Translations under genes and position numbers: made by a program | Shown: one piece after another, positions 14,401-37,692 of the stretch | Numbering within the stretch: the stretch's first letter is position 1 | How the letters are laid out: every line of letters starts with the position of its first letter | The notes under the pieces: generated by a model | Seen by the model: only the letters and a program-made list of their open reading frames with translations | Databases searched by the model: none | What the model was told of the DNA's origin: nothing | Assembly: GCF_051657365.1 (NCBI RefSeq) | Contig: NZ_JBOFKN010000029.1 | Coordinates: 1-42,715 of the forward strand | DNA from: Paraclostridium sp. | GTDB taxonomy: Bacteria > Bacillota > Clostridia > Peptostreptococcales > Peptostreptococcaceae | DNA length: 42,715 nt | Direction: 5' to 3'

Positions 14401-16860
14401 ACTGCAAAAGTTATTGGAAAGAACGGTCTTGAAAGTGCTAATGAAGAGTTTACATTTGTTGTTAAAAATAGTTTTCCTGCACCACCACGTTTCGATTTAA
14501 ACAATCCAATAAATAGAAAATATGAAAATAGAAATAAAAATGTTATGTGGAAGTGGGAAGATACTAATAGTAATTGGGACGAATTCGTCTCTTATAAAGT
14601 CAAAATAAATGATGAGGAATTTACTGAAGAATTTTCAGCATCAAAAACATATTATGAAGAAAAAAGAATTTTAAAAGATGGACCTAATAAAATAATGGTT
14701 ATAGGAAAGGATAAGGCAGGTAACTGGTCAACGGCAAATGAAACTACTGCTGGAATGCTTGGAGCTAATTATTTATCTAATACAAAGATGATAGATACAT
14801 CAAATCCAATACCTCTAACAGATAAAGATATAAAGGTACTTATAAAAGATTCTTCTACTTTTGAAATTTTCTTTGAAAGAAAAAAAGCAGATAATGAATA
14901 TTATATGTTCGAATTAATATCTCCGAATTCAGATGGAAATGATATAAAGTTTGTAGTTGGAAATACATTAGATAAAACATTTACTGAAGAAATATATTTT
15001 AGAGAAGAAAAGGTTATTCCAGGGTTAGAAATTGGAGAATTAAATGGAAAGCTAGGTTATTGTGAAATAAAAGATAACTCAGATACAGAAGATGATAAGA
15101 GTTTATACTTTACAAACCTATTACCTAATACATATACATTTGTTGTTAGCACTATAGATTATGCAGGAAATAGTTCTCAAATTTATACGAAAGTAATTGA
15201 ATTGAAAGATTTAACTAGAATAAAACCAGTATTTGTATATCCAAAAGAAACGTACACAAATAATAATACAATAATATTCCAATGGATATTAACTGCTGAT
15301 AATATAAAAAATTGGGAATATCAATTAACAACTCCATATAATTCGAGTGTTGCTGATTTAGTTAATCCTAGTAAATGGAGAAGTTTAAATGAGAATAGCT
15401 TCAAGTTGAATAATATACCTAAAGTTGTAGCAGGTAATGATGCAGATGGAGAATATACATTCTATGTTAGAGCTGTATTTGATGAAACAGTAGATGAGGC
15501 TGGTACAGGTCAAATAGTAAATAAAAAATCTGATATCTCGTCAATAACTGTCGTTCTTGATAGAAAAATACCAGGAGGAATAATTTTTACAAATAAACAA
15601 TTCACTACTGATAATTCTGTATTGAGATGGACTTGGGACTACACTTCATCTGGAGATATAGCTAGTGGAACATATGTTACATTTAATCCGAATTTACCAA
15701 TTACAGAATGGGAAAAAATAGAAAATAAAAAAGAGTATGAATCGTATCAAGAAAGAGAAGATGGTGTTTACACTTTATATGCTAAGACTTTTGATTTAGC
15801 TGGGAATATAAATAACACTATATACGAAAGTACAATAGTGTTGGATAGAATACCGCCGTTTAAACCTATTATAAATGGTGGAAGCAATATATTTACAAAT
15901 ATAATTCCAACAATTTCTTGGGAAAATGATTTAAATTATTTTAGATATGCTTGGCTAGTTATGACGATTGAAGAGTTCAATGCTTTTAAATCTGTTTATG
16001 ATAGACTTGTTAATAATGAAAACTATACATTAACTAATCATGATTGGAAATTTATTTTTTCTAAATCAGATATTGATAAAAATAATGTAAATGAAAGTAT
16101 AATTGAATTAGAAAGTCTATTTAGGAAAAATGAGTTTTTAATTGAAAATACAGTAACCATAAATAAGACTATATCTAAAAATGGAATATCAGAGGAAGGA
16201 AGCTATGTATTTATTCTAAGCGGATTTGATCCAAGTAATAACTGGTCAGAAGAGTTTGAATACCAATTTATAACTTACGACATAACTGCTCCTGATGTTA
16301 CTCTAATGAGATTTATAGAGCCTACATATGTAATAACTGATGAAAGACGTCCTAGATGGGTATGGGAAGTTCCTTATGATGTAACTAGATGTGAATATGT
16401 ATTAGAAAAAAATGGATATTCGGATGGTAGTATTGTAGGAAGTATAACCAAAGCAGCAGATGATGGAATATCTAATATTACTTATGAATTTAGACCTCAG
16501 TTCAATTTAACTTCTGGTAATTACAGATTGGTTGTCAATTGTTATGATTCTTCTAATAACTACGTTCAGATTAATAAATCAATTACATTAGAGACTGATA
16601 GTTCTTCACTTGAAAAAGAATTCCAAGATATTATTTTACCTGGACAAAATAATAGAATAAGAATTCAGAAAAATAAATACTCAGATACATATATTATAGT
16701 TGATATAGATATAGATAAAAATTCAACATTAAGCTATAGACTTATAGATAAAAATTCAAATAACAAAGAGTTTTTAATTTATGAAATAGGTAAAACTGAG
16801 CTTCAGATGAACTTAGAATATGAATTTAATATATTAACGTATAATATAGAAATTAATTAA
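8458..16860 (+). CDS. Giant structural protein (2,800 aa). Cys/Trp-containing N-terminal beta-rich region, with a C-terminal half of about 12 tandem fibronectin-type-III-like repeats. Probable tail/baseplate host-interaction protein.
   Basis: 8.4-kb uninterrupted ORF with GTG start at 8458 and AAGGAGAG RBS at 8441-8448. Repeated W..W ... Y.(I/L)(R/A)V.A.D.AGN.S patterns such as YEIRVWAVNELGN, VTDYAGNQSEF, TIDYAGNSSQIY and FDLAGNINNT. Confidence 0.85.
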   Translation: MKQDEKNVLDSCAIVGYDSGNILFKQENGIYFREPIRTTISNGRKVNNILKWILNNKETNYSLVADVSNYLEDFDSTYENRTFFTREHFSLTGGDDSISVNGNYMGGTSGVKYNVKTINWFKLEIKDVVGSSGDVTIIVECCVDNVNWIEFGSVRFNAMQGIDLGGSGADKTHTFNNTIECPNRNFKYRFRFTGNGHISCKEGDPWWFSSGGVFVLDEKYIPNEDIEYNVGVKSITDSHIEFTRTLAHKNGFYGETSISKRNQKQHIKLYLVYSGNTKYVLLDEVYTDTFVDNLYFGQIEESKFLLTKKSDLEIPKFSLNSKIKQLLYTKNDIYINKNILSRGTKLSDFGFKISSNSSLFDSSCNKLTEDINNSKLKLNVKKDIRFDNFISGIENEIDVDFLDNNNNLIFASKVFLDSTNKISDGIIVDKIKKSKTRYKGSLIIYDSYNEELLNLVDSLSSCSKTPQTVFLFCTSSNNSNELDCVIDKNTIGFSAFKDNVIDKVKKQNGFLFQNINLAIDKVGEIVSRKLSEDTMNTVNNLVGFNVYNFTNLSTSDYMNDYGYYTNEFKNGFNVNNPQITFIGQSTNNSLDGITQFDISKPFEFEANLNKIETNLTSDMLNEKRLFPGVDKPYYSVSIVHNENVLYSYIVGRDNVEMIDNDNKNKKYSIFVENKKVKVKYNENLTEKDRGKNNVFIVIKKNDCIINSYKAEFLVDYAEPIVDRFELNVSDIVEETNYQGKNELVYSKDNFFKVSMNLSANYEFRKGEYQLELRYSKNKNYKIIRPLEGYYQSKIYNIHLDELSNESAPDEKIKFGDWECMLVRNRYSYSIKNSTHNIPLEIDNALSINAVPMEPDFDDFQNNGLQQGKDVYITLKLINSDYYKKIKDIITFVKEVRFLSNNVDFTSKQGYFTYLDENKLGSDNSLSFITAHQNSLTLDNRNEMRWFISGTSENESNRFLNSIANLDSGSKKPKNIKINLVLFTGEIIETQTVTIGHAGKVAAPILLGTSEHLDKLKMLEAKKNGVTVDQLTQEQLIAIDELWKQLGTYNYNNQHIINGVKTFAFYSNLMEMKFDFGIAEYYTISQANNNTEMLPVTKDGVVRYIINQDGIDENGKGILTIKGYVKLADGTINSSNEVVITFYRKRFPSMVTTGDDYTKYVFYEKDSSDYYALKTVIQSELRLENLNGTYDSSRIDHIKVELVDVDKRTVIAEGPIVKFYDGFVPQRFIFDTGLTDDDLNKLNPEERFPIENTKEYIELEKILNDKIFKDGRHLGQIFYLRFKAVESIKDAYDVVKDINGKESFYPIIFTEKLEELKIIPSNGIIVIDNDNNQDLYTYKNKVAFMLESNNAEYFMYRTDRAASFQKVYPKSVGYSKLLKIVVSTYDVGNHFLEVKQKAEGEPESNVYSVIVEKIKPTSPPKISGDDLIDENAKWLLHPVDNALKIKTSIITGDSEHSQVVSSAMPYEVYIQPDKNLDIGYHAVKAIAVDKINNESEPTYFLTKKIGRPIASNVIGTEKTSDNVISWEWESQHFDGVKEYLVEINGIEKTIVPVNRYGTTEYYMRFFQGKELSDGTYEIRVWAVNELGNKNYMSSDFITKKGSKIKELSVEMYKFKDNYTNRLEAKIVTEDKAIKEFEYDILRNDNGKITSVTGTMKTNQKILPFIMENGEKVILDDGTYYLAVRAINYIDEKTDYVRIPFIFKKTPPDKPYIYFQRLLKRTIPLVFVKPSTEIPILAIEIKIGDKPFEKVRNNVWRPNYNLPLGINNILIKVTDYAGNQSEFSDFIEITNKGVNMFQEDFVVDMSNPVLTFDFNLPEMIVYGHTNFLVENEQLGVSVVVDVSNANNIEIPLTYSNDKILPPDGVYPFVIKLYDSDSKEYSYIGDVFYVTIDSYEPIKPYFLNSGYSNIEYNKFYTQNRNPKWLWQTRQNIDELKEFIVNLYEFSNNENTYVDYGTGQFKDYSTKLIGQFQVPGDLADGSYKLTAKVIGKNGLESANEEFTFVVKNSFPAPPRFDLNNPINRKYENRNKNVMWKWEDTNSNWDEFVSYKVKINDEEFTEEFSASKTYYEEKRILKDGPNKIMVIGKDKAGNWSTANETTAGMLGANYLSNTKMIDTSNPIPLTDKDIKVLIKDSSTFEIFFERKKADNEYYMFELISPNSDGNDIKFVVGNTLDKTFTEEIYFREEKVIPGLEIGELNGKLGYCEIKDNSDTEDDKSLYFTNLLPNTYTFVVSTIDYAGNSSQIYTKVIELKDLTRIKPVFVYPKETYTNNNTIIFQWILTADNIKNWEYQLTTPYNSSVADLVNPSKWRSLNENSFKLNNIPKVVAGNDADGEYTFYVRAVFDETVDEAGTGQIVNKKSDISSITVVLDRKIPGGIIFTNKQFTTDNSVLRWTWDYTSSGDIASGTYVTFNPNLPITEWEKIENKKEYESYQEREDGVYTLYAKTFDLAGNINNTIYESTIVLDRIPPFKPIINGGSNIFTNIIPTISWENDLNYFRYAWLVMTIEEFNAFKSVYDRLVNNENYTLTNHDWKFIFSKSDIDKNNVNESIIELESLFRKNEFLIENTVTINKTISKNGISEEGSYVFILSGFDPSNNWSEEFEYQFITYDITAPDVTLMRFIEPTYVITDERRPRWVWEVPYDVTRCEYVLEKNGYSDGSIVGSITKAADDGISNITYEFRPQFNLTSGNYRLVVNCYDSSNNYVQINKSITLETDSSSLEKEFQDIILPGQNNRIRIQKNKYSDTYIIVDIDIDKNSTLSYRLIDKNSNNKEFLIYEIGKTELQMNLEYEFNILTYNIEIN
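12690..16580 (+). repeat. Array of about 12 tandem FN3-like domain repeats (about 90-130 aa each) inside the 2,800-aa gene
   Basis: Periodic recurrence of the FN3 hallmark residues: Trp in strand B, Tyr in strand C, and a Y.xVxAxDxAGNxS F/G-strand motif. Repeats are diverged at the nucleotide level. Confidence 0.6.
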
Positions 16861-16867
16861 AACAATT

Positions 16868-16889
16868 GTGGCAGGAGAAATCCTGCCAC
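16868..16889 (+). promoter_or_regulatory. Intercistronic GC-rich stem-loop GTGGCAGGA-GAAA-TCCTGCCAC (perfect 9-bp stem, GNRA tetraloop)
   Basis: Seen directly in sequence 7 nt after the TAA of the 2,800-aa gene and 18 nt before the ATG of the next gene. It is not followed by a U-run, so it is not a canonical terminator. Possible RNA stability/processing element or partial terminator. Confidence 0.5.
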
Positions 16890-16907
16890 TTTAACAAAGG
16901 AGAGATT

Positions 16908-18719: not shown

Positions 18720-19423
18720 CTTTTAAAAACATAATTGATGAAATTGAAAATAACAATTCAATTTATAATGATGAGATAAAAAAAATAGATAAAGTTCAAA
18801 AACAAATTGCTGATGTTGGGATGTTTAGATTTTCTGAATTGGAAGCACAGAATAAAGCAATAGAGAAAATGTTCAATGAGTTTAATATGGATGTAAATTC
18901 AAACTCTTATATTTTTAAAAATTCTGATAATGATCCAAAAGTTAAAACATTAGAATTTCTCTCTCCTATACAAATTAAAAATGCTATTTTATTTGTTAAG
19001 GATTTTATATTTAATTCACCAGTAAGATTTAAAACAATTTTCCATACTATAGATAATAGTTTTATAGAACTTCATATGTTGCCATATGATTTTAGAGCTG
19101 ATTATATAGAAGAGATAAAATTTATGAATTATCAAGATAAATCTCTATTCAAAGCTATGAATAATGAAAAATTTGAGTATTATGATATTGTAAATGGAGA
19201 TGTTGGGATTCTTTATAAAAAGGTAGATACAGATTACACTGATTTTGTTGACCAAGAAGGGTATATAAACTTCAAGACTAATCACAGAAAGGATAAAGTT
19301 TTGTGTAGATACACTCCTATAAGCAATGAGTTTATAAAGACAATAGATAATAAAATCACTTCAGTAACATTGATTCTTGATAAACAAATAGATAATGAAA
19401 TTAAATTGAATATTTCTATTTAA
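18707..19423 (+). CDS. Hypothetical protein (238 aa)
   Basis: ATG overlapping the upstream gene by 13 nt, with an AGGTG RBS. Followed by a terminator. Confidence 0.75.
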   Translation: MGKITFKNIIDEIENNNSIYNDEIKKIDKVQKQIADVGMFRFSELEAQNKAIEKMFNEFNMDVNSNSYIFKNSDNDPKVKTLEFLSPIQIKNAILFVKDFIFNSPVRFKTIFHTIDNSFIELHMLPYDFRADYIEEIKFMNYQDKSLFKAMNNEKFEYYDIVNGDVGILYKKVDTDYTDFVDQEGYINFKTNHRKDKVLCRYTPISNEFIKTIDNKITSVTLILDKQIDNEIKLNISI

Positions 19424-19449
19424 AAGAGCTTTTAATAAGCTCTTTTTTT
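19423..19449 (+). terminator. Rho-independent terminator AAAGAGCTT-TTAAT-AAGCTCTTTTTTT
   Basis: Perfect 8-bp inverted repeat plus T-run immediately after the stop at 19423. Confidence 0.65.
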
Positions 19450-19494
19450 ACTTTCTTTTACAGTTACATTAAAATTAACTTTAGAGGTGGTTTT

Positions 19495-20892
19495 GTGAAA
19501 GTTGGAAAGATAATATATTTCATAGATTCTATAAAACTTCTTTTCGATAGAAACGATATATTAAATAAAGAAATACTTGAAAAATTGAATAGTTACAAAA
19601 GGGAATTAAACAATTTTCATAATATTTCAAGCAAGGTTTATGATGAAAATAAAACTAATATAAATGATTTTAAAACTATATTTAATTCTATATATAATAG
19701 TGAGTTTAAATCAATAAAAGAAACCTTTGAAAATAATAGTCGTATTTTTTATAACAACGGTTTTAAGTTAGATGTTGAGAAGCAAATGCTTATGTTTGAA
19801 GCAAAAGAAAATATTGAGGTTAACTATGAGTATTATAGACAAAATAAAAATTCAATTATATTTTTCTTTAAAGATCCAGTAGATGTTAATTTGATGAAAT
19901 TAATATCTAAAGATGAAAATGGTTTTAATATAGAGCCAAAAGAAATAATAGTTGAAAACTCTTTAGGTAAAACATATTTTCTTGAAGACTTCAGCAGATT
20001 CTTTGCAACAAACATTGAACTAGATGTTCAAACTTATATAAGTAATCTAAAGACTGTAACAAGTGTAGAATTTGTATTTGATTCTATACCTAGTTCCCAT
20101 TTGTCTACGTATAAGTTTTTCAAAGTGGTTTATAAAGATGAAAATGAAGTTATATTGAATTTTAAGAAGATTTTTAATGACAATAAAATAGTAAAACTAA
20201 AAAGAAACATTTCTGATAAATCAAAAGTTCTTAGGTATTCTATAAGTTTTGATAATGGTGTTTCTTTTAATGAATTTGATTGGAAAAATTCAGAATTAAA
20301 TGGATTAGATGTAGAAGATGATATAAAAATAATTTCTATTCCAGAAGAAAGCAATTCTGATTTGTTCATAAAAATTATAGCTGCTAAAGATTCTAAGAGT
20401 GTTAATAATCAAAAGGTTGTTGGAACTAAAAAATATAATAGTACGATAATGTCTAGTGATTATGTAGAAGATAATATGTACGAATATATATTAGATAATC
20501 ATGGCGGAGTTATAGATAAGAATTCTATTAAAGTTTATTTATCAAATAAATTTGGAACTATTATATCTAGTTATAATAATAATATCGTTGATACATTTTC
20601 TGAACCTGGAAAAGTTAGTATATCTTCTGGATTTATAAATACTGAAAAAGAGTCTATAAGTGATGATGATATATTTTTTCTTTGTGATTTTGATGATCTA
20701 AATTCTTTAAAAGCTATAAAAAATGAGATTGGTTTTTTTAGAAATGATTCTTTATATTTACCTAGTCTTTTTGCTAATGAAGAAATAAATTTTAGAGTTT
20801 TATATGATGTTAATTTCTATGAGAATGATACAAGTATAACTTCATACACGCCTTTTATATTTGATTTTGATATTATGGCTGGTGATAGTTAA
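19495..20892 (+). CDS. Hypothetical virion structural protein (465 aa), GTG start
   Basis: GTG at 19495 with AGAGGTGG RBS 15-22 nt upstream. Long ORF coupled to the next gene by TAATG. Confidence 0.75.
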   Translation: MKVGKIIYFIDSIKLLFDRNDILNKEILEKLNSYKRELNNFHNISSKVYDENKTNINDFKTIFNSIYNSEFKSIKETFENNSRIFYNNGFKLDVEKQMLMFEAKENIEVNYEYYRQNKNSIIFFFKDPVDVNLMKLISKDENGFNIEPKEIIVENSLGKTYFLEDFSRFFATNIELDVQTYISNLKTVTSVEFVFDSIPSSHLSTYKFFKVVYKDENEVILNFKKIFNDNKIVKLKRNISDKSKVLRYSISFDNGVSFNEFDWKNSELNGLDVEDDIKIISIPEESNSDLFIKIIAAKDSKSVNNQKVVGTKKYNSTIMSSDYVEDNMYEYILDNHGGVIDKNSIKVYLSNKFGTIISSYNNNIVDTFSEPGKVSISSGFINTEKESISDDDIFFLCDFDDLNSLKAIKNEIGFFRNDSLYLPSLFANEEINFRVLYDVNFYENDTSITSYTPFIFDFDIMAGDS

Positions 20893-21953
20893 TGAAATTT
20901 GAAAAATATATAAGAGTTAAGAATGAACAAAAGGATTTTCTTGTTGGTACATCAAGTTCAAATATTATTATTAAAAATATTGTTGAAAAAATATTTAAAA
21001 TAGAAAATGGAAATATAATTATTGGCAATGATGCTATTGAATTGGAAAGATTGTATCTAAATAAAGTTAATCTTGATGAAAATATTATTTGTAGTGTGGA
21101 AAAAGAGATTAGTTTATTACATAAAAAAATCCAGTTAATGGTTAAGAATAAGGAAGAACAATTAGAATTTATAGACAACAAAATTAAAGAGATTAAAGAA
21201 GCAATAGACTATGCAATAGGACTAAGAAATAAATCTGTATATGACGTTATAGGAGTTATTAATAATAGTTTTTCAAACATAATAACAAAGAATATTATAT
21301 TTTCTGATAATTTAAATACATTTAATGGGAAATATTCATTTTTAAGTGGAGAGAGAACTATATTAGAAAATAATAGTTATGAAATAATAGAGCATTCAGC
21401 AAATTATAAGTTGGAGATAAAACTAAAAAATAGAAACTTCATAAATTATATTATGTTTAACGATTCTTTAAAAACAATAGATACGTTTAAAGTTCAATTT
21501 CTTGATTCTAATACAACAGTTAAAGAGATAAAAGAGGTAGATATAAATATATCCCCACTTATTACAGCAAATATTAGTTGTAACAGAGTTGTTATTGAAG
21601 GTGTTGGAGCTAGAGAAATAGTATCTAATTTTAAAATATGTGTTGGTAAGAATAACTATAATTATAATAGAGCAATATCGGTATATGAATGTGATTTCTC
21701 TAATAATAAGTTATCAGAAAATTTCTTATTTAAATGTAATGATGATATAAAGATTTTCTTGTATCCTAAAAAAGAATTTATTTTAGATGAATCTTTAACA
21801 TATCAAGAATTTAAAGAAAAATATTATCTAATAGAAAACATAGTTAGAACAGATGTATCTAGTGTTGTAAATCTTCAGGATAATTACATAATATGTTTCT
21901 TAGAAACTAATAACGATATTTTACAAGAATTAAAAATTTATGGAGTTGATTAA
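20892..21953 (+). CDS. Hypothetical protein (353 aa)
   Basis: ATG overlapping the upstream stop. Same strand and operon. Confidence 0.75.
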   Translation: MKFEKYIRVKNEQKDFLVGTSSSNIIIKNIVEKIFKIENGNIIIGNDAIELERLYLNKVNLDENIICSVEKEISLLHKKIQLMVKNKEEQLEFIDNKIKEIKEAIDYAIGLRNKSVYDVIGVINNSFSNIITKNIIFSDNLNTFNGKYSFLSGERTILENNSYEIIEHSANYKLEIKLKNRNFINYIMFNDSLKTIDTFKVQFLDSNTTVKEIKEVDINISPLITANISCNRVVIEGVGAREIVSNFKICVGKNNYNYNRAISVYECDFSNNKLSENFLFKCNDDIKIFLYPKKEFILDESLTYQEFKEKYYLIENIVRTDVSSVVNLQDNYIICFLETNNDILQELKIYGVD

Positions 21954-24900
21954 TTTGCCTAAAAAGATTTTAGATATAGAAAAAATAGGAGAAAAGGGTA
22001 AGCTTGAAGTTTCTTATTTGAAATTAATTTTAAAAGAACTTTTATATGATATAAAGCTCGAATCTGAAAAAACAGATGATTTTAAACTGGATATTTCAAT
22101 AATGCTTGGATTACTTAATGATAAAGGCATTATTTCAAAGGAAGAGTACGAAGAACTTAAAGACAAAATAAGTTCTATAGTTGGGGATAATTCTAATGTT
22201 GATTCCTCTCTTGGAGATAGTGGATTATCTGATGAAGTGAAAGAAGAGATAATAAGAAAATCTTCATTTAAAGGTTTTTTTAAGACGTACGAAGGATTAA
22301 TTGCACAACATCCAAACGAAAAATGTAAGCATGGAGATTTTGCATATGTAAAAGATTTTGAAGCTGGAAGATATGATATTAATGCAATAACTGAATATAT
22401 TTATGATATTAAATTTTCTAAATGGATGGTAGCTAGTGATGAAACTGTTTTAAGAAACTTTAGACCAAGAGTAGAGAATTCTAATAACAGAAATGTAGAA
22501 CCTCTTGATAAAGATATAATAATGTACAATCAAGCTATTAAAAGATGGTTTTCTGTAACTTTAGAGGAAGCTGATATAGCTAGAAATTCAGTGATGTTAT
22601 CTCATATAAGTGATAGAGTAATTATAGAAAAAGATGATAGCTCTATAAATCAAGAAGCTAAGATAAATGATGGAAGAATAATGGTCCTTTCTGATGAAAA
22701 TTCAAATCCATTGAGACACCCTTCTCATATAAGTAATTTAGATGTTAGTAAAATTGTTAATCAAATAAATGATGATTATTATAAAACTATAGTTTTAAAT
22801 ACATTTTTAGATCAATTAGGAGTTGAGAGGATAGAAGTAGATTCCAATGACGTTGATTTGTATGGTAATGATATTCAAAAGAATATCACTAATAAAACAT
22901 TAAGAATGATTTTATCTAAAATTTATGAAGGATTTGATAGAACATTTAATATAGCTATTGATGAAAATACAAAGAGAATTATTAATGTAAATGATATAGA
23001 ACATAATAAATATATAACTAGAACCATTAGGACTTATGATGTTGATAAGTTGATATCTAGAATAAATGATGATTATTATAATTCTTTTGAAAATAAAGAT
23101 TTTACAGATAAAGCATACAGTGAATTATTAATAACTACTATTAATGAGTTTTCTTCTATTTTAAAGCTACCAGAAGGAGATTTAGAGGGTATAATAACAA
23201 GATTAGGTAATTTGTATGCAGGTGATGTCATAAGCGATTTAAACGAAGAATACAAAGAATATGAGAATAATAAAAATGTTTCTGTAGAAATTATGAGAAA
23301 GATTATCAAGACATTAAATTACTTACAAATATCTAAAGATATTTTGAGAGATGAACTTCTTGAGAGAGATAACATAATAAATGGAGATAAAAATTATACT
23401 GGAAATATAGACTTCAGTGGTATTACATCTTATATAAAATCTAATTCAAAGTTTGTTGAATTTTTAAATATACTTGGAGAAACCATAAATAATCACAAAA
23501 AAATAACATTTGGAAATACTTCAGGTGAGACTATAAACAATAATAGAAATGTTATATATACTAATGAAACTGGTAAAACAGAAAATAATCATTTCAATAT
23601 AAATTTTACAAATGAAAATGGAATAATGGATATAAAATCTAAAAATATAAATTTATCAAATGAAGATTTGGAACTTAGCATAAAAGGTATTACTAGATTT
23701 TTAGGTGATGCACATTTCTTTGGAAATATGTATATTTCTGATAGTTCTAAAATAGTTGAAGTTAATGCTGAAAAAGTTACATACAAAGATAATATTTTGG
23801 AATTAAACAATGGAGAAAAAGGAGCTGGAGTAACATTTGGAAAATCTGGTATGTATGTTGATAGAGGTCAATCTAAAGACTACTTTTTTGGATTTGATGA
23901 AATAAGGGACGAATTCGTCACAGGATTTGTAAATGATGAGTCTAATGAATCTATAGCTAATATCAATCCAGTTTTAAACAGAAGCAATTCAGAAATGTTG
24001 GAAAATTTAAAACCTTTCGTTTGGGATGAACAAAACAAAAGAGCTATAACAAGTTCTAATATTGATTTAGATATAAATGGCTGTATAAATTTTAAGATAA
24101 CTGTCCCGAATCACTCATTTAAACTATTGGATGTCGTTAGATTTCAAGATACAGATTTAGTTTTATCTAATTGTAATTCTTTAGATGAATCTATAGTTGT
24201 TGGTATTGTATCAAAAATTAAAGGTGATGATGTTTATGTAGCAACTAGCGGAATAATACCTTTAGTTATAAAAGGCATTAGTAGTGGAACTGTTTTATTT
24301 CTACAACCAGATGGAAGTTTAGGAATTGATAATTCTCATTTGATTTCAAAAGAAGTTGCTATCCAAAGTGAAAATGGAATAATAATAAATATTCAAAAGT
24401 CAGCAGAATTAAATAATTCTTATACTTCGTATCAAACAAATCATAACCTTAAAAAATTTGATGCTGTTATTATGGATGATAATGGATTTTTAATAAAAGC
24501 AAGCAGTGAATTTATAGAAACAGCAGAAGTTTTCGGAATAGTTTCAAAAGTTACTCAATATTCTGTACAAGTTGTAACATCAGGATTTATAGAAGGAGAA
24601 TTAGTTAGTCCTATTGGATCAACTTTATTTTTACAACATGATGGAGGAATTTCCAATCAGAAAGATTCTAATATTGAAAAAGCTATTGGAACTAAAGTTA
24701 ATTTAGGAATTTATGTAAACATAAAACTAGGAGTTAAAAAGATTGGAATTAAGGATAAACAAATTGTTACTGAAAAGCATAATGAAACAAATAGTCTTGT
24801 TGAAATAAAAAGTAATTATAAATTTAAGACAGGAGATTTATTAACACTAGAAGAAAGTGGTAAATATAATAGTTTTGACAATGTTAAAAACTCACCAATC

Positions 24901-25476
24901 GGAATAGTTGTTAAAGCGTATATAAATAAGAATGGTGAAAATAAATATTTAATTAGTACATCTAATTTTATTTCTTATAATGAAATTTCAATGGAAACAT
25001 TTATAAATGAATATGGTTTTGATATTTTACCAGGAGATACACTTTATTATGGCCACTCTTTTAATACAAAATCTGGAGAATATACTTTAGGAAGATTCTC
25101 TGACAATGGATTTTTCTTTAACTTTAATAAAAAAGAAATTAAGAAAGATAATATTGTTAAACAAAATAAAGAGTTTATAGCTTTGCTTCCTAATAAATAT
25201 TACAGAATAAAAACTGAAAGTTTGTCTATGAATACTATTCAAGTATTTCACTCTGATACAAAAGGTTTTGCTAAGATAGATTTAATAAACAACAATTCAC
25301 TTAATAATAAATTTTTATTTGCTAAGTTGATATATGGAACTCACTTAGTAAGATTATTTAATCATTGTGGTGAATTTATAATAAGTCCAAACAATAACGA
25401 GATTCTTATATATAGCGAATTAGAATTAGTTGAAACTAATTTCAGTGACGATTTTATAAGTATTACTCTTGAATAA
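21940..25476 (+). CDS. Large fibre/spike-like structural protein (1,178 aa) with three internal ~110-aa repeats in its C-terminal third
   Basis: Long ORF. An alternative TTG start at 21955 has GGAG 9 nt upstream. Repeats (V/F)GIVSK...SG(I/F)I...G(T/S)(V/T)LFLQ(P/H)DG and ...PIGIVVK...GDTLYYGH at about 24150-25100. Asn/Gly/Thr-rich beta-strand segments typical of fibres. Confidence 0.8.
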   Translation: MELINLPKKILDIEKIGEKGKLEVSYLKLILKELLYDIKLESEKTDDFKLDISIMLGLLNDKGIISKEEYEELKDKISSIVGDNSNVDSSLGDSGLSDEVKEEIIRKSSFKGFFKTYEGLIAQHPNEKCKHGDFAYVKDFEAGRYDINAITEYIYDIKFSKWMVASDETVLRNFRPRVENSNNRNVEPLDKDIIMYNQAIKRWFSVTLEEADIARNSVMLSHISDRVIIEKDDSSINQEAKINDGRIMVLSDENSNPLRHPSHISNLDVSKIVNQINDDYYKTIVLNTFLDQLGVERIEVDSNDVDLYGNDIQKNITNKTLRMILSKIYEGFDRTFNIAIDENTKRIINVNDIEHNKYITRTIRTYDVDKLISRINDDYYNSFENKDFTDKAYSELLITTINEFSSILKLPEGDLEGIITRLGNLYAGDVISDLNEEYKEYENNKNVSVEIMRKIIKTLNYLQISKDILRDELLERDNIINGDKNYTGNIDFSGITSYIKSNSKFVEFLNILGETINNHKKITFGNTSGETINNNRNVIYTNETGKTENNHFNINFTNENGIMDIKSKNINLSNEDLELSIKGITRFLGDAHFFGNMYISDSSKIVEVNAEKVTYKDNILELNNGEKGAGVTFGKSGMYVDRGQSKDYFFGFDEIRDEFVTGFVNDESNESIANINPVLNRSNSEMLENLKPFVWDEQNKRAITSSNIDLDINGCINFKITVPNHSFKLLDVVRFQDTDLVLSNCNSLDESIVVGIVSKIKGDDVYVATSGIIPLVIKGISSGTVLFLQPDGSLGIDNSHLISKEVAIQSENGIIINIQKSAELNNSYTSYQTNHNLKKFDAVIMDDNGFLIKASSEFIETAEVFGIVSKVTQYSVQVVTSGFIEGELVSPIGSTLFLQHDGGISNQKDSNIEKAIGTKVNLGIYVNIKLGVKKIGIKDKQIVTEKHNETNSLVEIKSNYKFKTGDLLTLEESGKYNSFDNVKNSPIGIVVKAYINKNGENKYLISTSNFISYNEISMETFINEYGFDILPGDTLYYGHSFNTKSGEYTLGRFSDNGFFFNFNKKEIKKDNIVKQNKEFIALLPNKYYRIKTESLSMNTIQVFHSDTKGFAKIDLINNNSLNNKFLFAKLIYGTHLVRLFNHCGEFIISPNNNEILIYSELELVETNFSDDFISITLE

Positions 25477-27458: not shown

Positions 27459-27511
27459 ACTTTCCGTCGTGACGGAAAGAATAAAAAGTGACGAATTCGT
27501 CACTTTTTTTT
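27459..27511 (+). terminator. Tandem double terminator: CTTTCCGTCGTGACGGAAAG hairpin, then the perfect 18-bp palindrome AGTGACGAATTCGTCACT followed by a T-run
   Basis: Two consecutive inverted repeats immediately after the stop at 27451, the second followed by TTTTTTTTT. The second hairpin carries the over-represented GACGAATTCGTC motif. Confidence 0.7.
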
Positions 27512-27600
27512 ATTTATATTATTCAAGTGGCATTAAAATGACAAAATTACAAATTTTGATAAAATTTAGTCTATTCTGTAATCCAAAATTTTCTAAGTTT

Positions 27601-29145: not shown

Positions 29146-29166
29146 ATAAACCATAGAGGTGAGTGT

Positions 29167-30219: not shown

Positions 30220-30226
30220 TTTTTTT

Positions 30227-30260
30227 AAGGTTATCGCTTATATTGGTGATAACCTTTTTA
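30227..30260 (+). terminator. Rho-independent terminator AAGGTTATC...GATAACCTTTTT
   Basis: 9-bp inverted repeat plus T-run, 8 nt after the stop at 30219. Confidence 0.6.
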
Positions 30261-30290
30261 TTAAAGTAAATAAGGAGATGAAAACTATTT

Positions 30291-32480: not shown

Positions 32481-32483
32481 AAA

Positions 32484-33050: not shown

Positions 33051-33061
33051 GAGATATAGAG

Positions 33062-33589: not shown

Positions 33590-33601
33590 GGAGATTAAAT
33601 T

Positions 33602-33736
33602 ATGAGAAAAATCGAAAGTTTACTATTTGGAATATGGAAAGGGTTAAAAATAGTTTTATTAATAAATGGAAAAAATGACAAATTAACAAAAATGAATAAA
33701 ATAGAAGAACAACTAAAAAAAACAAAGGAGAAATAA
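33602..33736 (+). CDS. Candidate small ORF (44 aa, MRKIESLLFGIWKGLKIVLLINGKNDKLTKMNKIEEQLKKTKEK), absent from the ORF track
   Basis: ATG 7 nt after AAGGAGA (33588-33594). Fills the 150-nt gap between two + strand genes. Its stop lies 2 nt before the next ATG. Confidence 0.35.
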   Translation: MRKIESLLFGIWKGLKIVLLINGKNDKLTKMNKIEEQLKKTKEK

Positions 33737-33738
33737 TT

Positions 33739-34224: not shown

Positions 34225-34251
34225 AAAAGAGGAATGATCCTCTTTTTTTTA
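34224..34251 (+). terminator. Rho-independent terminator AGAGGA-ATGA-TCCTCTTTTTTTT
   Basis: Seen directly after the stop at 34224. Confidence 0.6.
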
Positions 34252-34401
34252 TGTTATAATGTGAATTATCTAATATATGGTTGAAAATAAATTATGTTGT
34301 TAGCTATATTGATGACATAGAATATTATATATTTTGAATAAATATATTTATAAAGAAATTAGAGTATACAGTTTAAAATTAAAATAACTGGAGTGTGTAT
34401 A

Positions 34402-34893
34402 ATGGTAAGGAAATTAAAGAAATCTAACAATGTTGAAATGTTAAAAAAAGCAGAATCAGACATGAAGATAATTAATGAAATGAATGGAATTGAAATTCTT
34501 TCAGATGAAAATGGAAATTGTAATAATTGCAATCACTGCTGCAGTATAGTAACACTGATATCAAAAGATGAATTAGAAATTTTGGCTAGTAAACTTACAA
34601 ATGAGATAATAAATGATTTTGTAGATAGAATAAATAAAGATGGAATAAAACATGTTAGTTTTTGTCCATATAGTTATCCAGAAAAAGGATGTGTAATATA
34701 TAAAGATAGACCTAAAACGTGTGTATCATATCATTGTAATCCTGAAAAAATGAATTTTGAGTTAGCTATTAGATTTACAAAAAAAATGGAATCACAAGGT
34801 GGAGGAGTGCCATTATTTGAGATTTTTCATAAGAAAAATCCGTATTTATACGTTAAAATAAAAACGAATCTTAGAGAATTGAGAATAATATAA
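34402..34893 (+). CDS. YkgJ-family zinc/iron-chelating domain protein (CxxCxxCC motif)
   Basis: CNNCNHCC motif plus downstream Cys (FCPY, CVIYKDRPKTC, YHC) typical of the UPF0153/YkgJ family. ATG 34402 with GGAG 8 nt upstream (track start GTG 34393). Own AT-rich upstream region. Confidence 0.6.
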   Translation: MVRKLKKSNNVEMLKKAESDMKIINEMNGIEILSDENGNCNNCNHCCSIVTLISKDELEILASKLTNEIINDFVDRINKDGIKHVSFCPYSYPEKGCVIYKDRPKTCVSYHCNPEKMNFELAIRFTKKMESQGGGVPLFEIFHKKNPYLYVKIKTNLRELRII

Positions 34894-34900
34894 ACTAATA

Positions 34901-34931
34901 AAAAAAGGCACTCAAAAGAATGCCTTTTTTT
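34901..34931. terminator. Bidirectional rho-independent terminator AAAAAAGGCA-loop-TGCCTTTTTTT between convergent genes
   Basis: Hairpin flanked by an A-run on one side and a T-run on the other. Sits between the + gene ending at 34893 and the - gene ending at 34930. Confidence 0.55.
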
Positions 34932-36450
34932 ATTGATTTTCAATTTCTACTTCAGTTTCATTTTTAAATAAAGTTATGTTTTCTTCAGGTTTTATAGTTA
35001 AAGGTTTTAATTCTGCAAATACTTGTTGCTCTTTGTTATTACCTGTTAGATTAATTTCTGGGAAGTTAAGACCTCTAGCTAAATCATTAGCCATTTTAAT
35101 CATAGGAATACTAGATACAAGATTATTTACAGTAGATCCTATTTCACCACCAATAGCACCTCTATTATCTTCATTACCATTAGTTATAACATTAATACTA
35201 TCAATAGTAATATTATTCATAGCATCTACATAATGTTCAGTTAATTTAGGAAGAGTTTCCATTAATTTAATTTTTAAAGCTCCATCAACTCCATATATTT
35301 CAACTAATCTTTTTTCTATATCTACTCTTTTAGAGAAAGGTAAAGTTTCAGCAGACGCATTAGCTTCAGCTTCTAGCTTTATAGCTTTAGCATTAGCCTC
35401 AGCTATAATTAAAGTCTTATCAGCTGTAACTTTAGCTATTTCTAGTTCGTTTTCTGCTGTTAATTTGTTAGCCTCGTTTTCTATAGTTATTGAAGTGATT
35501 TCTTCAATTCTTTTTTCTTCTAAAGATAAAGAGTATTCTTTTTTTATTGTTACTATTTTTTCATCTGTTATTTCTTGTTTACTTTTTTCATCACTTAACT
35601 CTATTTCTTTTTTAGAATTTATATTATTTAATTCTATTTTCTTTTCAGTTTCTATTTTGATATTTGATTTTTTAAGAGATGTATTATATTCAAGTTCAGC
35701 TATTTCAGCTATTTCTTTTTGTTCTGCTGCTGATTCGTCGATTTTATATTCAACAACTTGTTTAGTTTTTTCTGAATTTGTTTTAGCTATAGAAACTTCT
35801 TTTTCTTTTGTAGAGTTGGCGATAGCTGTAGCTGAATTTTTTTCTTGTTCAGCTATAGATATTTCAGAGCCAGATCTAGCAGCAGCACTAGCTTTTTTAC
35901 CTAATTGTTCTACTATTCCATCAAGGTCTTTTATCATTTTAATATTGAAATTCATTAAATCTAAACCAAACTTACTTAATTCAATTTCAGTAGATTCAGA
36001 AACTTTTTCCATTAATTTTTTTCTATTTTCTAATAAGTCTTCAAAATTCATTTCAGAAACTATTGATCTTAATTGTCCTGTTAAAATTTCTTTAACTAAT
36101 GCTACTGTATTTTCTTGTTTAAAGTTAAGTAATCTTTCAGTAGCTACTTTTCTTTCTTTTTCTTCTTTGGATACAGCAAATGTAGCATCAGCTTCAACTT
36201 CTATTCTTATTTTATCCTTAGTTGCAACTCCTGAATCTTCATCAAGTGCTATGTCTAAGTTGTGTGGGTTAAGACTCATAAGTTTATGACTTTGTAAGAA
36301 TGGAATAACAAATAGTCCCTTACCTTCTAAAACCTTTGTTCCACCTATTCCATACCTAACAAGCAAACTATCTGACGGGCATTTCTTGTATGTGCTTAAA
36401 ACAAGTCCTGTAGCTACTGTTGCTGTTGCTCCTAAAATTAATCTTATCAT
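34930..36450 (-). CDS. SPFH/band-7 (flotillin/YqiK-like) membrane-scaffold protein (506 aa)
   Basis: N-terminal hydrophobic segment, then an SPFH core (…GGTKVLEGKGLFVIPFLQSHKLMSLNPHNLDI…). Long Ala/Glu/Lys-rich coiled-coil (flotillin EA-like) region. GGAGGAAATAA RBS before the ATG at 36450. Confidence 0.75.
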   Translation of the reverse strand: MIRLILGATATVATGLVLSTYKKCPSDSLLVRYGIGGTKVLEGKGLFVIPFLQSHKLMSLNPHNLDIALDEDSGVATKDKIRIEVEADATFAVSKEEKERKVATERLLNFKQENTVALVKEILTGQLRSIVSEMNFEDLLENRKKLMEKVSESTEIELSKFGLDLMNFNIKMIKDLDGIVEQLGKKASAAARSGSEISIAEQEKNSATAIANSTKEKEVSIAKTNSEKTKQVVEYKIDESAAEQKEIAEIAELEYNTSLKKSNIKIETEKKIELNNINSKKEIELSDEKSKQEITDEKIVTIKKEYSLSLEEKRIEEITSITIENEANKLTAENELEIAKVTADKTLIIAEANAKAIKLEAEANASAETLPFSKRVDIEKRLVEIYGVDGALKIKLMETLPKLTEHYVDAMNNITIDSINVITNGNEDNRGAIGGEIGSTVNNLVSSIPMIKMANDLARGLNFPEINLTGNNKEQQVFAELKPLTIKPEENITLFKNETEVEIENQ

Positions 36451-36460
36451 TTATTTCCTC

Positions 36461-36859
36461 CTAAATTCTTTTTGAAATATTCCCAGATACACTATTTGCA
36501 TTTCCTATTATTGATTTGCAATTTATATTACCTGAAACTGTTGTTGCAGAATAAACATCACCTTTAATAAACATTTCACCGCTTGTATTTTTTAAGTAGT
36601 TAACGTTTCCATCAACTTTAATTTCGTTGCATCTATCTACATCAATTTTTTCTACCAATCCATAAACAGCAACGTTAATTACTTTTTCATCTTTATTTTC
36701 ATGTTTAAGTTTCTTACCGTTTATAAAAATATTTCCATTATTTATTTGTAAACTTTCTATATCGTTATCTATTCTTATAATATTTCCATTTATTTTAATG
36801 ATACCTTTTTGTTTTTTCTTGTACTTTTTGAAAAACTTCGTTATCACCTTTAGAATCAT
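36461..36859 (-). CDS. Bactofilin-like beta-helical repeat protein (about 133 aa)
   Basis: Repeats of (V/I).G(N/D)(V/I)... such as VDGNVNY, IKGDVYS, VSGNINC, IIGNANS and VSGNI, as in DUF583/bactofilin. Preferred start ATG 36859 with AAAGGTGA RBS (track GTG 36868). Stop is 10 nt before the flotillin start. Confidence 0.55.
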   Translation of the reverse strand: MILKVITKFFKKYKKKQKGIIKINGNIIRIDNDIESLQINNGNIFINGKKLKHENKDEKVINVAVYGLVEKIDVDRCNEIKVDGNVNYLKNTSGEMFIKGDVYSATTVSGNINCKSIIGNANSVSGNISKRI

Positions 36860-36870
36860 TTTTATCACCT

Positions 36871-37692
36871 TTAACTTTTTTGAGACGAATTCGTCTCTTT
36901 TAATTTTTCTTTAATTTTATTCATTCTGGAACAAGCATATGAATTTAATCTTTTGTATAAAGGTTTATTTTCAAAAAAGAATCCATATAAATCTTTAGAA
37001 ATAAAACTATTAAATATAGTTTGTTCTAATGAAAATAAATCCATGTAAGAAGTTACTGTGTTAAGTTTGGTGTTAATTGTATTTATATACTCTTCTTTTA
37101 TAGTTATATTTGAATTGGTAGTTACATATACACTATCAGCTAAGATATTCCAATGGTTCTCTATTTCTTCTTTTTTGTAGTGATGAAGTAATTGTTTTTT
37201 TAATTCATTTATATGTCTTCCATTTTTTATATAATATATAACTAAATCAAATAATGTTTTATTTAAATTAGGAATAAGACTGGTAAAATAACAATCTATT
37301 TCTTTTACATTATTATTTGATAGTATATTTAATAATTTTAATGAAGCTTTTAAATTTCTTTCGATTGCAAATTCATCAAAATATATCTTTTCTCCAAAGT
37401 TTCTTCTAGGTCTTAAAGCACTTTCAAAACTAAGAATAGCAACATCAATTATTCCTATCTTTGTTTTTAATTTTAAGTGGCTTAAAGATTTTTTTATAAC
37501 TTCATCAACATAAAAATTACAGCAAATTATATCGGCTATATTTTCTCTATTAACAGTTATAATGCTAATTTTATTTTTTTTATTTTTAATAGCATAAGTT
37601 AAAGCTTCATTAACTAAATTATGACTCTTTCCACTTCTCCTTGAACTATGAATTAGATTTAATGATATTTCTTTTGAGTTATTTCTTTTCAA
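36871..37692 (-). CDS. Hypothetical protein (273 aa) with a P-loop-like SRRSGKSH segment
   Basis: TTG start at 37692 with AAGGA upstream, and no internal ATG until near the C-terminus. Overlaps the upstream gene by 14 nt. The 3' end contains the palindrome GAGACGAATTCGTCTC. Confidence 0.6.
   Translation of the reverse strand: MKRNNSKEISLNLIHSSRRSGKSHNLVNEALTYAIKNKKNKISIITVNRENIADIICCNFYVDEVIKKSLSHLKLKTKIGIIDVAILSFESALRPRRNFGEKIYFDEFAIERNLKASLKLLNILSNNNVKEIDCYFTSLIPNLNKTLFDLVIYYIKNGRHINELKKQLLHHYKKEEIENHWNILADSVYVTTNSNITIKEEYINTINTKLNTVTSYMDLFSLEQTIFNSFISKDLYGFFFENKPLYKRLNSYACSRMNKIKEKLKETNSSQKS

Follow-up and report, generated by a model that had tools for sequence, protein, structure and literature searches.

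Besides intrinsic terminators, phages have hairpins of stereotyped sequence, such as the CUUCGG hairpins of T4 and the RNase III sites of T7, and parS-type sites are palindromes of 13-16 bp that are kept exactly and often lie inside genes. The stoperators of cluster A mycobacteriophages, which are read by repressors such as L5 gp71, are more than 20 near-identical, short, dispersed and phage-specific sites, found mostly in short intergenic spaces within transcription units and not at promoters (PMC9283540). They have been proposed to halt elongating RNA polymerase and thereby silence the prophage; each is an asymmetric 13-mer with one orientation relative to transcription and is read by a two-domain monomer (PMC9283540). 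On plasmid RK2, the KorB dimer loads at OB sites that lie away from promoters and exerts long-range silencing (PMC11790492). The prophage-plasmid N15 has separate sites IR1-IR4 of the form GTGCGACC-NN-GGTCGCAC, read by the partition protein SopB (PMC7205306). Here we describe a palindrome that resembles each of these systems in some respects and differs from all of them.

The window, by which we mean the whole analysed stretch of 42,715 nt, is 99.3% identical to plasmid p3 of the fish-gut bacterium Cetobacterium somerae. This plasmid is a circular, low-copy-type jumbo phage-plasmid of 188.7 kb that encodes ParA, a TubZ-like protein, a type I R-M system and a GIY-YIG nuclease. Within the window, GACGAATTCGTC occurs four times exactly (Table 1), where 1e-4 to 1e-3 copies are expected (6e-5 to 1.3e-3 with Markov models of order 0-5). 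There were no copies in any of 100 dinucleotide-preserving shuffles of the window, and the window holds no variants with one or two mismatches. The sequence-only reading of this DNA had reported four copies against an expectation far below one. Both statements hold, as do its descriptions of the 16-bp flanks and of the gene context of every copy; one set of coordinates had to be corrected, as the third copy had been placed at 27489-27500.

Table 1. Positions of the motif copies and of the neighboring hairpin in the window.
Feature	Position	Sequence	Location
Exact 12-mer copies (sequence scan of the window)	14578-14589; 23908-23919; 27490-27501; 36884-36895	GACGAATTCGTC	
Site 1	14576..14591	GGGACGAATTCGTCTC	inside the 2800-aa virion-type gene (8458-16860, +)
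Site 2	23906..23921	GGGACGAATTCGTCAC	inside the 1178-aa gene (21940-25476, +)
Site 3	27483..27508	AAAAAGTGACGAATTCGTCACTTTTT (26-nt perfect palindrome; 16-mer AGTGACGAATTCGTCACT)	intergenic; flanked by the 660-aa gene (stop 27451) and a gene with its real start at ~27628
Companion hairpin	27460..27479	CTTTCCGTCGTGACGGAAAG	first hairpin of the double terminator; outside the motif family
Site 4	36882..36897	GAGACGAATTCGTCTC	last codons of the 273-aa P-loop gene (36871-37692, minus strand)

Across the whole of p3 we found 17 perfect copies and three with one mismatch, where 2.6e-4 to 8e-3 are expected. The motif is enriched more than 10,000-fold and is the top-ranked over-represented word of the replicon. 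The octamer CGAATTCG occurs in p3 only inside the motif (17/17 occurrences). The consensus of the full site is GNGACG-AATT-CGTCNC. The 12 core positions are invariant across the 17 copies; the first flanking position varies freely (A, G or T), and the second (+/-8) is G/C in at least 90%. The TC-type and AC-type flank classes proposed earlier from the four window copies dissolve in this larger set, since the position that defined them is simply free. The perfect palindrome is 12-16 bp long and reaches 26 bp with its flanks. Sites cover the whole genome at about one per 11 kb, spaced roughly evenly through the giant-gene region and clustered most densely among small early-type genes at 150-168 kb.

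In the chromid sample and the plasmid and phage records searched, the motif is restricted to this element. We found no copies in 100 kb sampled from the host chromids p1 and p2. A 30-mer BLAST against 72,556 plasmids matched at multiple places only in p3 (28 strand-places), and no Cetobacterium plasmid or chromid in PLSDB gave a multi-copy match. One similar match in p1 turned out to be an unrelated terminator, AGAGACT-GATA-AGTCTCT. None of the phage records searched had more than one weak place, and the IMG/VR search returned two single matches. A short dispersed palindrome with an EcoRI site could suggest a synthetic linker, a mobile repeat of the REP or MITE kind, or an uptake-type sequence of the host. 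We regard this group of explanations as having almost no chance of being right. Besides a finished NCBI replicon, independent assemblies from at least seven sequencing runs contain the motif, so it is not an assembly artefact. Similarity among the copies ends at the 16-mer plus A/T runs, and so there is no longer dispersed repeat; unlike REP or MITE sequences, the motif is neither inserted nor confined to extragenic DNA. DNA uptake sequences are dense in the replicons of their own host, and here the host sample is empty. The coding copies replace nothing: homologous proteins have the same residues in the same columns, with D-E-F conserved in homologues of the host proteins down to 38% identity, and also in the 1178-aa family, so these copies are not insertions.

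The replicon encodes a GIY-YIG nuclease besides its type I R-M system, and 12 core positions are invariant, so the motif might be targeted by an enzyme for restriction, modification, nicking or homing, whether of type I (GAC-N6-GTC), EcoRI-like (GAATTC) or BsmBI-like (the CGTCTC arms). The sequence-only reading had put such an enzyme beside a dimeric regulator among the possible roles. We consider an enzyme target very unlikely, and of the two suggestions a DNA-binding factor that acts as a dimer is the better fit. GAATTC occurs 15 times in the window, not the roughly six times once counted, against 16.8 expected, so EcoRI-type sites as such are not unusual. The motif family accounts for 20 of the 23 GAC-N6-GTC sites in p3, and the other three compare with about six expected; a type I enzyme would also leave the center free. 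The arm is CGTCNC, not CGTCTC, which argues against a BsmBI-like enzyme. To our knowledge, 12-16 bp far exceeds the specificities of known methyltransferases, and avoidance, rather than enrichment with conservation, is what one normally sees at restriction targets.

Sites 1 and 2 are both in frame as Asp-Glu-Phe-Val. The core of site 1 forms codons 2041-2044 of the 2800-aa ORF (GAC GAA TTC GTC), and that of site 2 forms codons 657-660 of its gene, within the conserved peptide GFDEIRDEFV. GAC accounts for 11% of its codon family, TTC for 18% and GTC for 3%. Because these three codons are rare, a DEFV peptide should have the motif spelling with p ~5e-4. Five of the seven DEFV peptides in real p3 genes have exactly this spelling and a sixth is one base off.

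The spelling is also kept in relatives. The core of site 1 is identical at the orthologous position in L014/L015 and L018, where flanking codons differ, and the core of site 2 is identical in L014, L015, L016 and L018. In L014/L015 the 1178-aa protein next to the site 1 gene is 85% identical, and sites 1, 2 and 3 are retained in the 85% relative. L018 is an outgroup to the window, L014 and L017; it has sites 1 and 2 letter for letter at a protein identity of only 51%. A copy in the p3 protease gene is retained in L010, with both flanking codons changed synonymously. In general, in-gene copies are conserved as far as the proteins can be aligned, and the copies in 33 kb sampled from the L018/L011 lineage are coding only. 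There is turnover too. L017 keeps the peptide RDEFV at site 2 but spells it GAT GAG TTT GTA, with all four codons changed to common synonyms, which looks like relaxed selection. Elsewhere the same lineage has a variant with a 3-nt center, TAGACG-N3-CGTCTA, including a new in-gene copy. The conclusion that the motif is a selected cis element and not a product of chance, as first suggested from the window, is strongly supported: there are 17 copies against at most 0.008 expected and none in the host sample, rare codons spell it, orthologous positions conserve it, and a hairpin copy shows compensatory change.

That hairpin is at site 3. Eight of the p3 copies are intergenic, three lie in last codons and six are inside genes; the 11/17 that are intercistronic typically stand 15-40 nt before the next ribosome-binding site. 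Eight copies form the stems of terminator-like hairpins on both strands or on the transcribed strand, and ten are terminator-like on at least one strand. About half of all copies are thus terminator hairpins, a feature that the sequence-only reading had not seen. Site 3 has an 11-pair stem, an AATT loop and T-runs on both strands. It folds at -12.9 kcal/mol and scores as terminator-like in both directions, so that it resembles a bidirectional intrinsic terminator. As the sequence-only reading had noted, it stands second of two hairpins in a double terminator-like structure. The companion hairpin is kept with compensatory changes in L014, and the same pairing of companion and motif hairpin is seen again at p3 125150-125192. 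The L014 ortholog of site 3 is AAAAAAGAGACGAATTCGTCTCTTTTTT, where the seventh pair, T-A in the window, is A-T, a compensatory change; that of L017 is CACTAGACG-AAC-CGTCTAGTG, followed by T6.

Site 4 lies 3-6 codons before the stop, where the gene reads GAG ACG AAT TCG TCT CAA AAA AGT TAA, with the ribosome-binding site of the following gene about 25 nt further downstream. Only the + strand, antisense to the genes, is terminator-like here. Its core is kept in L136 (78% aa identity). In L137 a 1-nt deletion gives GAGACGAATCGTCC and alters the C-terminus, and in L138-L140 the site is GAGACGAACCGTCTAG.

Could the family be ordinary intrinsic terminators that share a stem by descent or convenience, with coding copies that arose by coincidence? 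Eight copies, including site 3, are indeed canonical terminator-like hairpins in both directions, and they share with intrinsic terminators a G+C-containing stem, a 4-nt loop, a flanking U-run and a position between cistrons. However, the motif stem is invariant in sequence. We counted 76 terminator-like matches in p3 (both strands counted), many with unrelated stems, and the perfect motif at only ten places. A U-run is found on the sense strand in 8/17 copies and not in the other 9/17, so some copies are terminators and the family as a whole is not. In the window, site 3 is the only site with a U-run on its transcribed strand; site 4 has one antisense only, and neither strand of sites 1 and 2 has a T-run. 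As these two are the oldest and best-conserved copies, termination is not the primary function. Coincidence in the coding copies is contradicted by their spelling, which would take an event of 5e-4 for each of them, by their orthologous retention to 51% identity, and by the L018/L011 stretch with nothing else. We therefore give this explanation hardly more than nominal credence, slightly below that of an enzyme target.

A stronger alternative is that the motif acts as RNA. In this case a hairpin (G)NGACG-AAUU-CGUCN(C) would be bound by an RNA-binding protein or endoribonuclease of the phage-plasmid or the host, and could serve in 3'-end formation, processing, stabilization, or switchable termination and antitermination of identical terminators. 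Either direction of transcription gives the same stem-loop because the DNA is palindromic. The intercistronic and terminator-like placement of many copies fits this. The seventh pair is complementary in seven of the eight intergenic copies and comes in three types (A-T, T-A and G-C); from this covariation and the double compensatory change between site 3 and L014, we conclude that hairpin formation at the intergenic copies is itself selected. The two intergenic p3 copies with one mismatch differ in the loop only (AAAT and ATTT). In L017, L137 and L138 the arms are kept and the center becomes a variable loop of 3 nt (ATT, AAC or AAT), always A-first on the sense strand.

Several observations weigh against the hairpin as the form that is read. 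Long structural genes contain six of the copies, the two most conserved among them; these six have no U-tract, and cleavage or termination there would destroy the message. The bare GAGACG-AAUU-CGUCUC hairpin folds at -7.4 kcal/mol, and the in-gene copies with mismatched seventh pairs have stems of 4-6 pairs at -2.9 to -7.7 kcal/mol; at site 2 the motif stem is only four pairs (GGGACGAAUUCGUCAC, -4.3 kcal/mol). Among about 30 copies in six lineages there is no covariation at the four core pairs, something unusual in an RNA that is read by its shape, and no Rfam family matched the hairpin. The outer G/C at +/-8 is kept also in coding copies where +/-7 cannot pair; since +/-7 is not Watson-Crick there, the +/-8 G-C would be an isolated pair in the hairpin with no paired seventh position to stack on. 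We take the retained outer G/C and the missing core covariation as evidence that the duplex may be what is read. On balance an RNA role seems possible but unlikely.

Another candidate role is that of dispersed centromere or genome-organization sites at which a partition or condensation protein of the phage-plasmid would load. Like ParB and KorB sites, which are palindromes of 13-16 bp, the motif is a nearly invariant palindrome that is tolerated inside genes, and some copies are promoter-distal. A low-copy-type circular replicon with ParA and a TubZ-like protein could use such sites, and roughly even spacing across the giant-gene region suits a function of coverage. The four palindromic sites of N15 (PMC7205306) and the long-range silencing by KorB (PMC11790492) are precedents. 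N15 is likewise a plasmid-living phage with several separate copies of one palindrome, although it has four sites against the 17-20 of p3. From OB and parS sites the motif differs in its unrelated sequence and in its association with terminators. Next to ParA, p3 showed no protein of the ParB/KorB type: the 204-aa protein encoded downstream gave no Pfam match, ParB-type domains included, and its only matches are to PHROGs of unknown function. Local repeats at the par/tub locus (p3 120750-121000) are unrelated to the motif, the nearest motif copy is 2.5 kb from the par genes and none is closer than that to the tub genes, and the densest cluster is elsewhere. We consider a centromere role distinctly improbable.

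Our preferred interpretation, which we hold tentatively, is that purifying selection maintains GNGACG-AATT-CGTCNC as a lineage-specific cis element, and that the phage-plasmid encodes a sequence-specific factor which recognizes it. This putative factor would most probably be a symmetric (dimeric) DNA-binding protein; its action would be genome-wide, as for stoperators and KorB sites. It might read two GNGACG half-sites whose centers are 10 bp, or one helical turn, apart across the A/T center, the same half-site geometry as in 434/lambda-type operators. On this view, intergenic space has been used to make the palindrome part of the stem-loop of a bidirectional intrinsic terminator; the giant virion genes offer no such space, and there codons spell it at places where the protein happens to have Asp-Glu-Phe-Val, or Thr-Asn-Ser-Ser in the other frame. 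The most likely job of such a factor would be genome-wide control of transcription in the plasmid-prophage state, with bound dimers acting as orientation-independent roadblocks or silencing nucleation points that reinforce the terminators.

With stoperators the motif shares its many dispersed, near-identical copies: there are 17 + 3 in p3, and 11/17 are intergenic or in last codons. It differs from them in its perfect palindromic symmetry, its fusion to terminator hairpins and its presence deep inside genes as well. Set beside the stoperator repressor, the candidate readers in p3 are generic: two Cro/C1-type HTH_26 proteins and a winged-helix protein (Pfam). One of the HTH genes starts 88 bp downstream of a motif copy that abuts a promoter-like box, TTGTCT-17-TATAAT. 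Two findings speak against an operator: the distances from site to promoter-like box are inconsistent (about -47 and -77 in the two cases examined), and 17 perfect copies with three one-mismatch copies form a more uniform set than is typical of operators. The variable 3-nt centers with kept arms would suit a hairpin loop, and a dimer would need a changed half-site spacing to follow them.

A further idea, rather unlikely in our judgment if somewhat less so than a centromere, joins the two forms: one 16-nt palindrome would be the punctuation of the whole genome, and a single dedicated factor would read it both as duplex DNA and as hairpin. If this is true, the in-gene duplex copies would be loading or roadblock sites, and the identical bidirectional terminators could be switched together, for example between plasmid-prophage and lytic growth. 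Factor and site may then have co-evolved, to an AATT center with a G-C outer pair in one lineage and to a 3-nt center with T-A in the other.

The palindrome GACGAATTCGTC is present four times in the window (table below). The sequence-only reading had put this far above chance, and a comparison with Markov models of order 0-5 agrees, as these predict between 6e-5 and 1.3e-3 copies; none of 100 dinucleotide-preserving shuffles of the window yielded any. Relatives with one or two mismatches were not found in the window, so that copies are perfect where they occur at all. What had been reported on flanks, reading frames and contexts of the four copies was correct, with some exceptions. The third copy had been placed at 27489, which is off by one, and the roughly six GAATTC sites that had been counted in the window are actually 15, as composition predicts.

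The window is 99.3% identical to CP143322.1, which is plasmid p3 of Cetobacterium somerae strain ceto, a circular replicon of 188,661 bp from a catfish gut culture that also encodes the window's 273-aa protein. This replicon is a jumbo phage-plasmid. It has virion genes (portal protein, prohead protease, major head protein and tail fibres) along with genes for a TubZ-like protein, ParA, GroEL, HU, a sigma factor, a type I R-M system and IscB, and nearly all genes in its annotation are hypothetical. Its portal is about 25% identical to the portals of Bacillus jumbo phage-plasmids and phage 0305phi8-36. Searching the INPHARED phages with the window (megablast) and with the 273-aa protein (tblastn) gave no match, and no relatives of that protein's locus were found in IMG/VR. 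Compared to the window, p3 has about 1.6 kb extra between two virion-module genes; this stretch carries an LA2681-family HEPN-domain gene, and it looks as if a defence-type cassette was recently gained or lost. Elsewhere in p3, lnu(C), a gene for lincosamide resistance, has as neighbours an ISSag10 transposase and the gene of the RNA-guided nuclease IscB, which places an antibiotic-resistance gene on a phage-plasmid.

Coordinates of the motif copies and of other features in the window, p3 (L004 and L005 are slices of it) and a related contig
Feature	Position	Description	Basis
GACGAATTCGTC copies in window, n=4	starts 14578, 23908, 27490, 36884		exact matches
p3 intergenic copies, n=8		A-run and T-run at flanks, bidirectional terminator-like	record annotation
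p3 gene-end copies, n=3		last few codons, directly before next ribosome-binding site	record annotation
p3 internal copies, n=6		within genes of 457-2800 aa	record annotation
Copies with upstream sense-strand A-run	window 36882-36897; p3 158716, 159823, 107287	coding or gene-end	
Companion hairpin CTTTCCGTC-N2-3-GACGGAAAG	window 27460-27479; p3 125150-125168 (L004 25150-25168)		
Box ATGACA-16-TAAAAT	window 27538-27565 and 33675-33702	promoter-like	
Tandem CTACTGC	L005 3114-3149 (p3 153114-153149)	five units	
Second gene-free stretch	p3 155478-156643	1.1 kb	
TTGTGTTACTGTTGTTAAGTTACACAA repeats and TATATAGNTNACAANNCTATATA palindromes	L004 20750-21000 (p3 120750-121000)	two 27-nt repeats	
Extra stretch in p3	NZ_CP143322.1 57908-59407, against window 19423-19495	HEPN-domain gene	
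IscB and ISSag10 transposase beside lnu(C)	L005 26232-30830 (p3 176232-180830)		
273-aa P-loop gene	window 36871-37692, -		
135-aa gene	window 36461-36868, -	PHROG of unknown function	
226-aa gene	window 38164-38844, +		
GACGAAATCGTC	L011 14381-14392	Asp-Glu-Ile-Val in head-module gene	

Across p3 there are 17 perfect copies, compared to an expectation of 2.6e-4 to 8e-3. The motif is the most over-represented word in p3 at all tested lengths, and every occurrence of CGAATTCG falls within it. When the 17 copies are aligned, nothing is shared outside the site and A/T runs. The 12-mer is invariant, the adjacent outer position varies freely among A, G and T, and the second position outside is G/C in at least 90% of the copies, which gives a full site of GNGACG-AATT-CGTCNC. 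Since the adjacent position is free, the two flank types described earlier are not real classes. Intergenic copies are clearly enriched (8/17 against about 10% non-coding DNA, P about 1e-4). Three more p3 copies have one mismatch: the one inside a gene also encodes DEFV, and the two intergenic ones form terminator hairpins whose loops are AAAT and ATTT. Of the 76 terminator-like hits on both strands of p3, the motif contributes just 10 places, and the stems of the remaining hairpins are unrelated to it; terminator and promoter calls were made by pattern matching only.

We considered whether copies spread over the replicon could form a dispersed centromere, for which N15 is the model (PMC7205306). 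We judged this improbable, because the par and tub loci have repeats of their own and no ParB-type protein was seen (Pfam; 204-aa protein downstream of ParA). The interval separating the TubR-like/TubZ-like genes from the HTH-ParA operon contains two 27-nt repeats (TTGTGTTACTGTTGTTAAGTTACACAA) along with TATATAGNTNACAANNCTATATA palindromes, which probably serve the two segregation systems as local operators or centromeres.

Judged from codons and alignments, the coding copies are evidently written in codons and not inserted. An insertion or linker origin was rejected because D-E-F(-V) occupies matching alignment columns in homologues. Sixteen homologues of the prohead protease, with identities down to 38%, have D-E-F conserved, and the four closest homologues of the 1178-aa protein keep the peptide GFDE(I/L)RDEFV. 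The codons used are rare, with shares of their codon families in p3 of 11% for GAC, 18% for TTC and 3% for GTC, and the chance of spelling DEFV as GAC GAA TTC GTC is about 1/2000. Nevertheless, 5/7 DEFV peptides of real p3 genes have this spelling and a sixth is one base off. Five internal copies are read as DEFV, whereas the sixth internal copy and the three at gene ends are read as (E/G)-T-N-S-S; no coding copy uses the Arg-rich third frame.

The earlier proposal that conservation should be examined in related elements could be followed with contigs around homologues from public run assemblies, which are fragments of 4-24 kb, and several sites are kept at orthologous positions. Elements like L014, L018, L017 and L137 come from the runs ERR10789542, SRR29133621, SRR23636735, SRR21393949, SRR21393943 and SRR34340265. 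The tree of the 1178-aa protein is (((window, L014), L017), L018), (L134, L135). In L014, L015 and L016 (85% aa), the two in-gene DEFV copies of the window (sites 1 and 2) and the intergenic terminator copy (site 3) are all kept, and at the seventh pair of site 3 the window's T-A is replaced by A-T, which makes a double compensatory change. L018 (51% aa), the outgroup of the window, L014 and L017, has exact 12-mers at sites 1 and 2 with different flanking codons and residues. L010 (protease 77% aa) keeps the protease copy with synonymous changes in the codons on either side, and L136 (78% aa) keeps site 4, the copy at the 3' end of the 273-aa gene. The more distant L134 and L135 (36-38% aa) have neither peptide nor motif, and no over-represented palindrome of their own was found in 20-23 kb each of these two and of L012 (48%).

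L017 (61% aa) kept the RDEFV peptide and spells it GAT GAG TTT GTA, the four commonest codons. Its counterpart of the site-3 terminator is CACTAGACG-AAC-CGTCTAGTG followed by T6, and it has a new in-gene copy, GTAGACG-ATT-CGTCTAC, in which the rare codons GAC and TCG are used; at that place the window reads GAT GAT AGC TCT. Two GACG-N3-CGTC sites in 10.5 kb compare with about 0.01 expected (an estimate from base composition), and the L017 lineage has evidently not lost the system. Site 4 reads GAGACG-AAC-CGTCTAG in L138-L140, from the same run series as L017, and GAGACG-AAT-CGTCC in L137, where a 1-nt deletion within the motif also rewrote the C-terminus of the 273-aa protein. What stays constant in the element, therefore, is the arms, which are retained across lineages. 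One set of lineages has AATT at the centre and others have a 3-nt centre of variable sequence, and the outer pair changed from G-C to T-A at both L017 sites. In 33 kb sampled from the L018/L011 lineage there are only coding copies (two perfect and one with one mismatch), so these seem to be the oldest layer. The L011 copy GACGAAATCGTC uses rare codons GAC, ATC and GTC in a 54% relative; p3 has no site at this position, and it is probably a lineage-specific copy decayed by one base.

The motif appears to be specific to these elements. Chromids p1 and p2 of strain ceto were free of copies over the 100 kb examined. A 30-mer BLAST of all PLSDB plasmids gave multiple places in p3 only, and the single similar match in p1 is an unrelated terminator. 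No phage record had more than one weak place. Scanning IMG/VR with GAGACGAATTCGTCTC gave two single matches on unrelated high-GC contigs, which is chance level, and in 185,579 genomes this 16-mer had at least 115 single scattered matches in unrelated taxa, with no Cetobacterium among the matches listed; the scan is uninformative on the host's main chromosome (strain ceto, assembly GCA_036324545.1). In literature full texts, the 12-mer was found in cloning primers only. A type I, EcoRI-like or BsmBI-like target was ruled out on counts, and counts together with the comparative data contradict plain terminators, enzyme targets, mobile repeats and artefacts.

To explain the data, a sequence-specific reader belonging to this clade of elements is required, and two readings remain. 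The one we tentatively rank first is that a putative symmetric dimer reads the duplex DNA. Each half of the dimer would bind one of two 6-bp half-sites with centres 10 bp apart over the A/T centre, which is classical Cro/cI-type operator geometry. The outer G/C is retained even in coding copies where the neighbouring position is non-Watson-Crick, the core stem pairs never covary and neither strand of the most conserved copies has a U-run, all of which support reading as duplex. The second reading, to which we give a lower probability, is that the site is read in transcripts as an RNA hairpin; in its favour are the intercistronic placement of copies, the covarying seventh pair among intergenic copies and the loop-like centre in the L017, L137 and L138 lineages. 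For the dimer, the candidate readers in p3 are two Cro/C1-type HTH proteins (WP_330112526.1 and WP_330112462.1, both HTH_26) and one winged-helix protein (WP_330112544.1), and one HTH gene is just downstream of a motif copy abutting a promoter-like box. Its sites would probably be orientation-independent roadblocks or nucleate silencing across the plasmid-prophage, and would be co-opted into terminators where intergenic space permits. Such a role would work like that of L5 stoperators (PMC9283540) and KorB OB sites (PMC11790492), although the motif is not a member of either family.

Several other features are near motif copies. For several coding and gene-end copies the upstream A-run on the sense strand is Lys codons, so they are terminator-like on the antisense strand only and may block antisense transcription. 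The companion hairpin directly adjoins the motif hairpin at two unrelated loci, making the same double terminator twice, and is kept in L014 with compensatory changes. The first ATGACA-16-TAAAAT box, within AAATGACAAAATT, is 40 nt downstream of site 3, and its conservation extends to L014 and, in part, to L017; this may be an element-specific promoter type. The CTACTGC tandem is in a gene-free region of about 1 kb right after a motif copy, and another copy is within the second gene-free stretch. These two stretches could be origin, packaging or non-coding-RNA regions. No Rfam families were found anywhere in the window.

Site 4 is exactly at the junction of the 273-aa and 135-aa genes, which are separate. 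In the 273-aa protein, similarity to large terminases is confined to their N-terminal ATPase half (Terminase_6N, E = 6e-4). The 226-aa gene is alone on the opposite strand, flanked by divergent promoter-like boxes. It encodes a protein with an N-terminal transmembrane helix and a coiled coil; this protein has no family match and is unusually conserved (62% identity in a lineage where the neighbouring 273-aa protein has only 50%). We rejected it as a repressor candidate, as it has this helix and coiled coil and no HTH.

To our knowledge, there has been hardly any study of the phage-plasmids and jumbo phages of Fusobacteriota, and a cis element with such statistical and evolutionary support is a direct experimental handle. 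A 30-bp oligonucleotide bearing AAAAAGAGACGAATTCGTCTCTTTTT could fish out the element's master regulator or organiser. L017 is a natural experiment in which the peptide was respelled and a new variant site is elsewhere: coding copies can be recoded with the protein unchanged, so the function of the motif is testable by synonymous mutagenesis. In genome annotation it should be borne in mind that clusters of rare codons in phage genes can represent embedded DNA signals. Should the reader act as a roadblock or silencer, the logic of stoperators and KorB would extend to a symmetric site fused with intrinsic terminators, an arrangement that, as far as we know, was previously undescribed.
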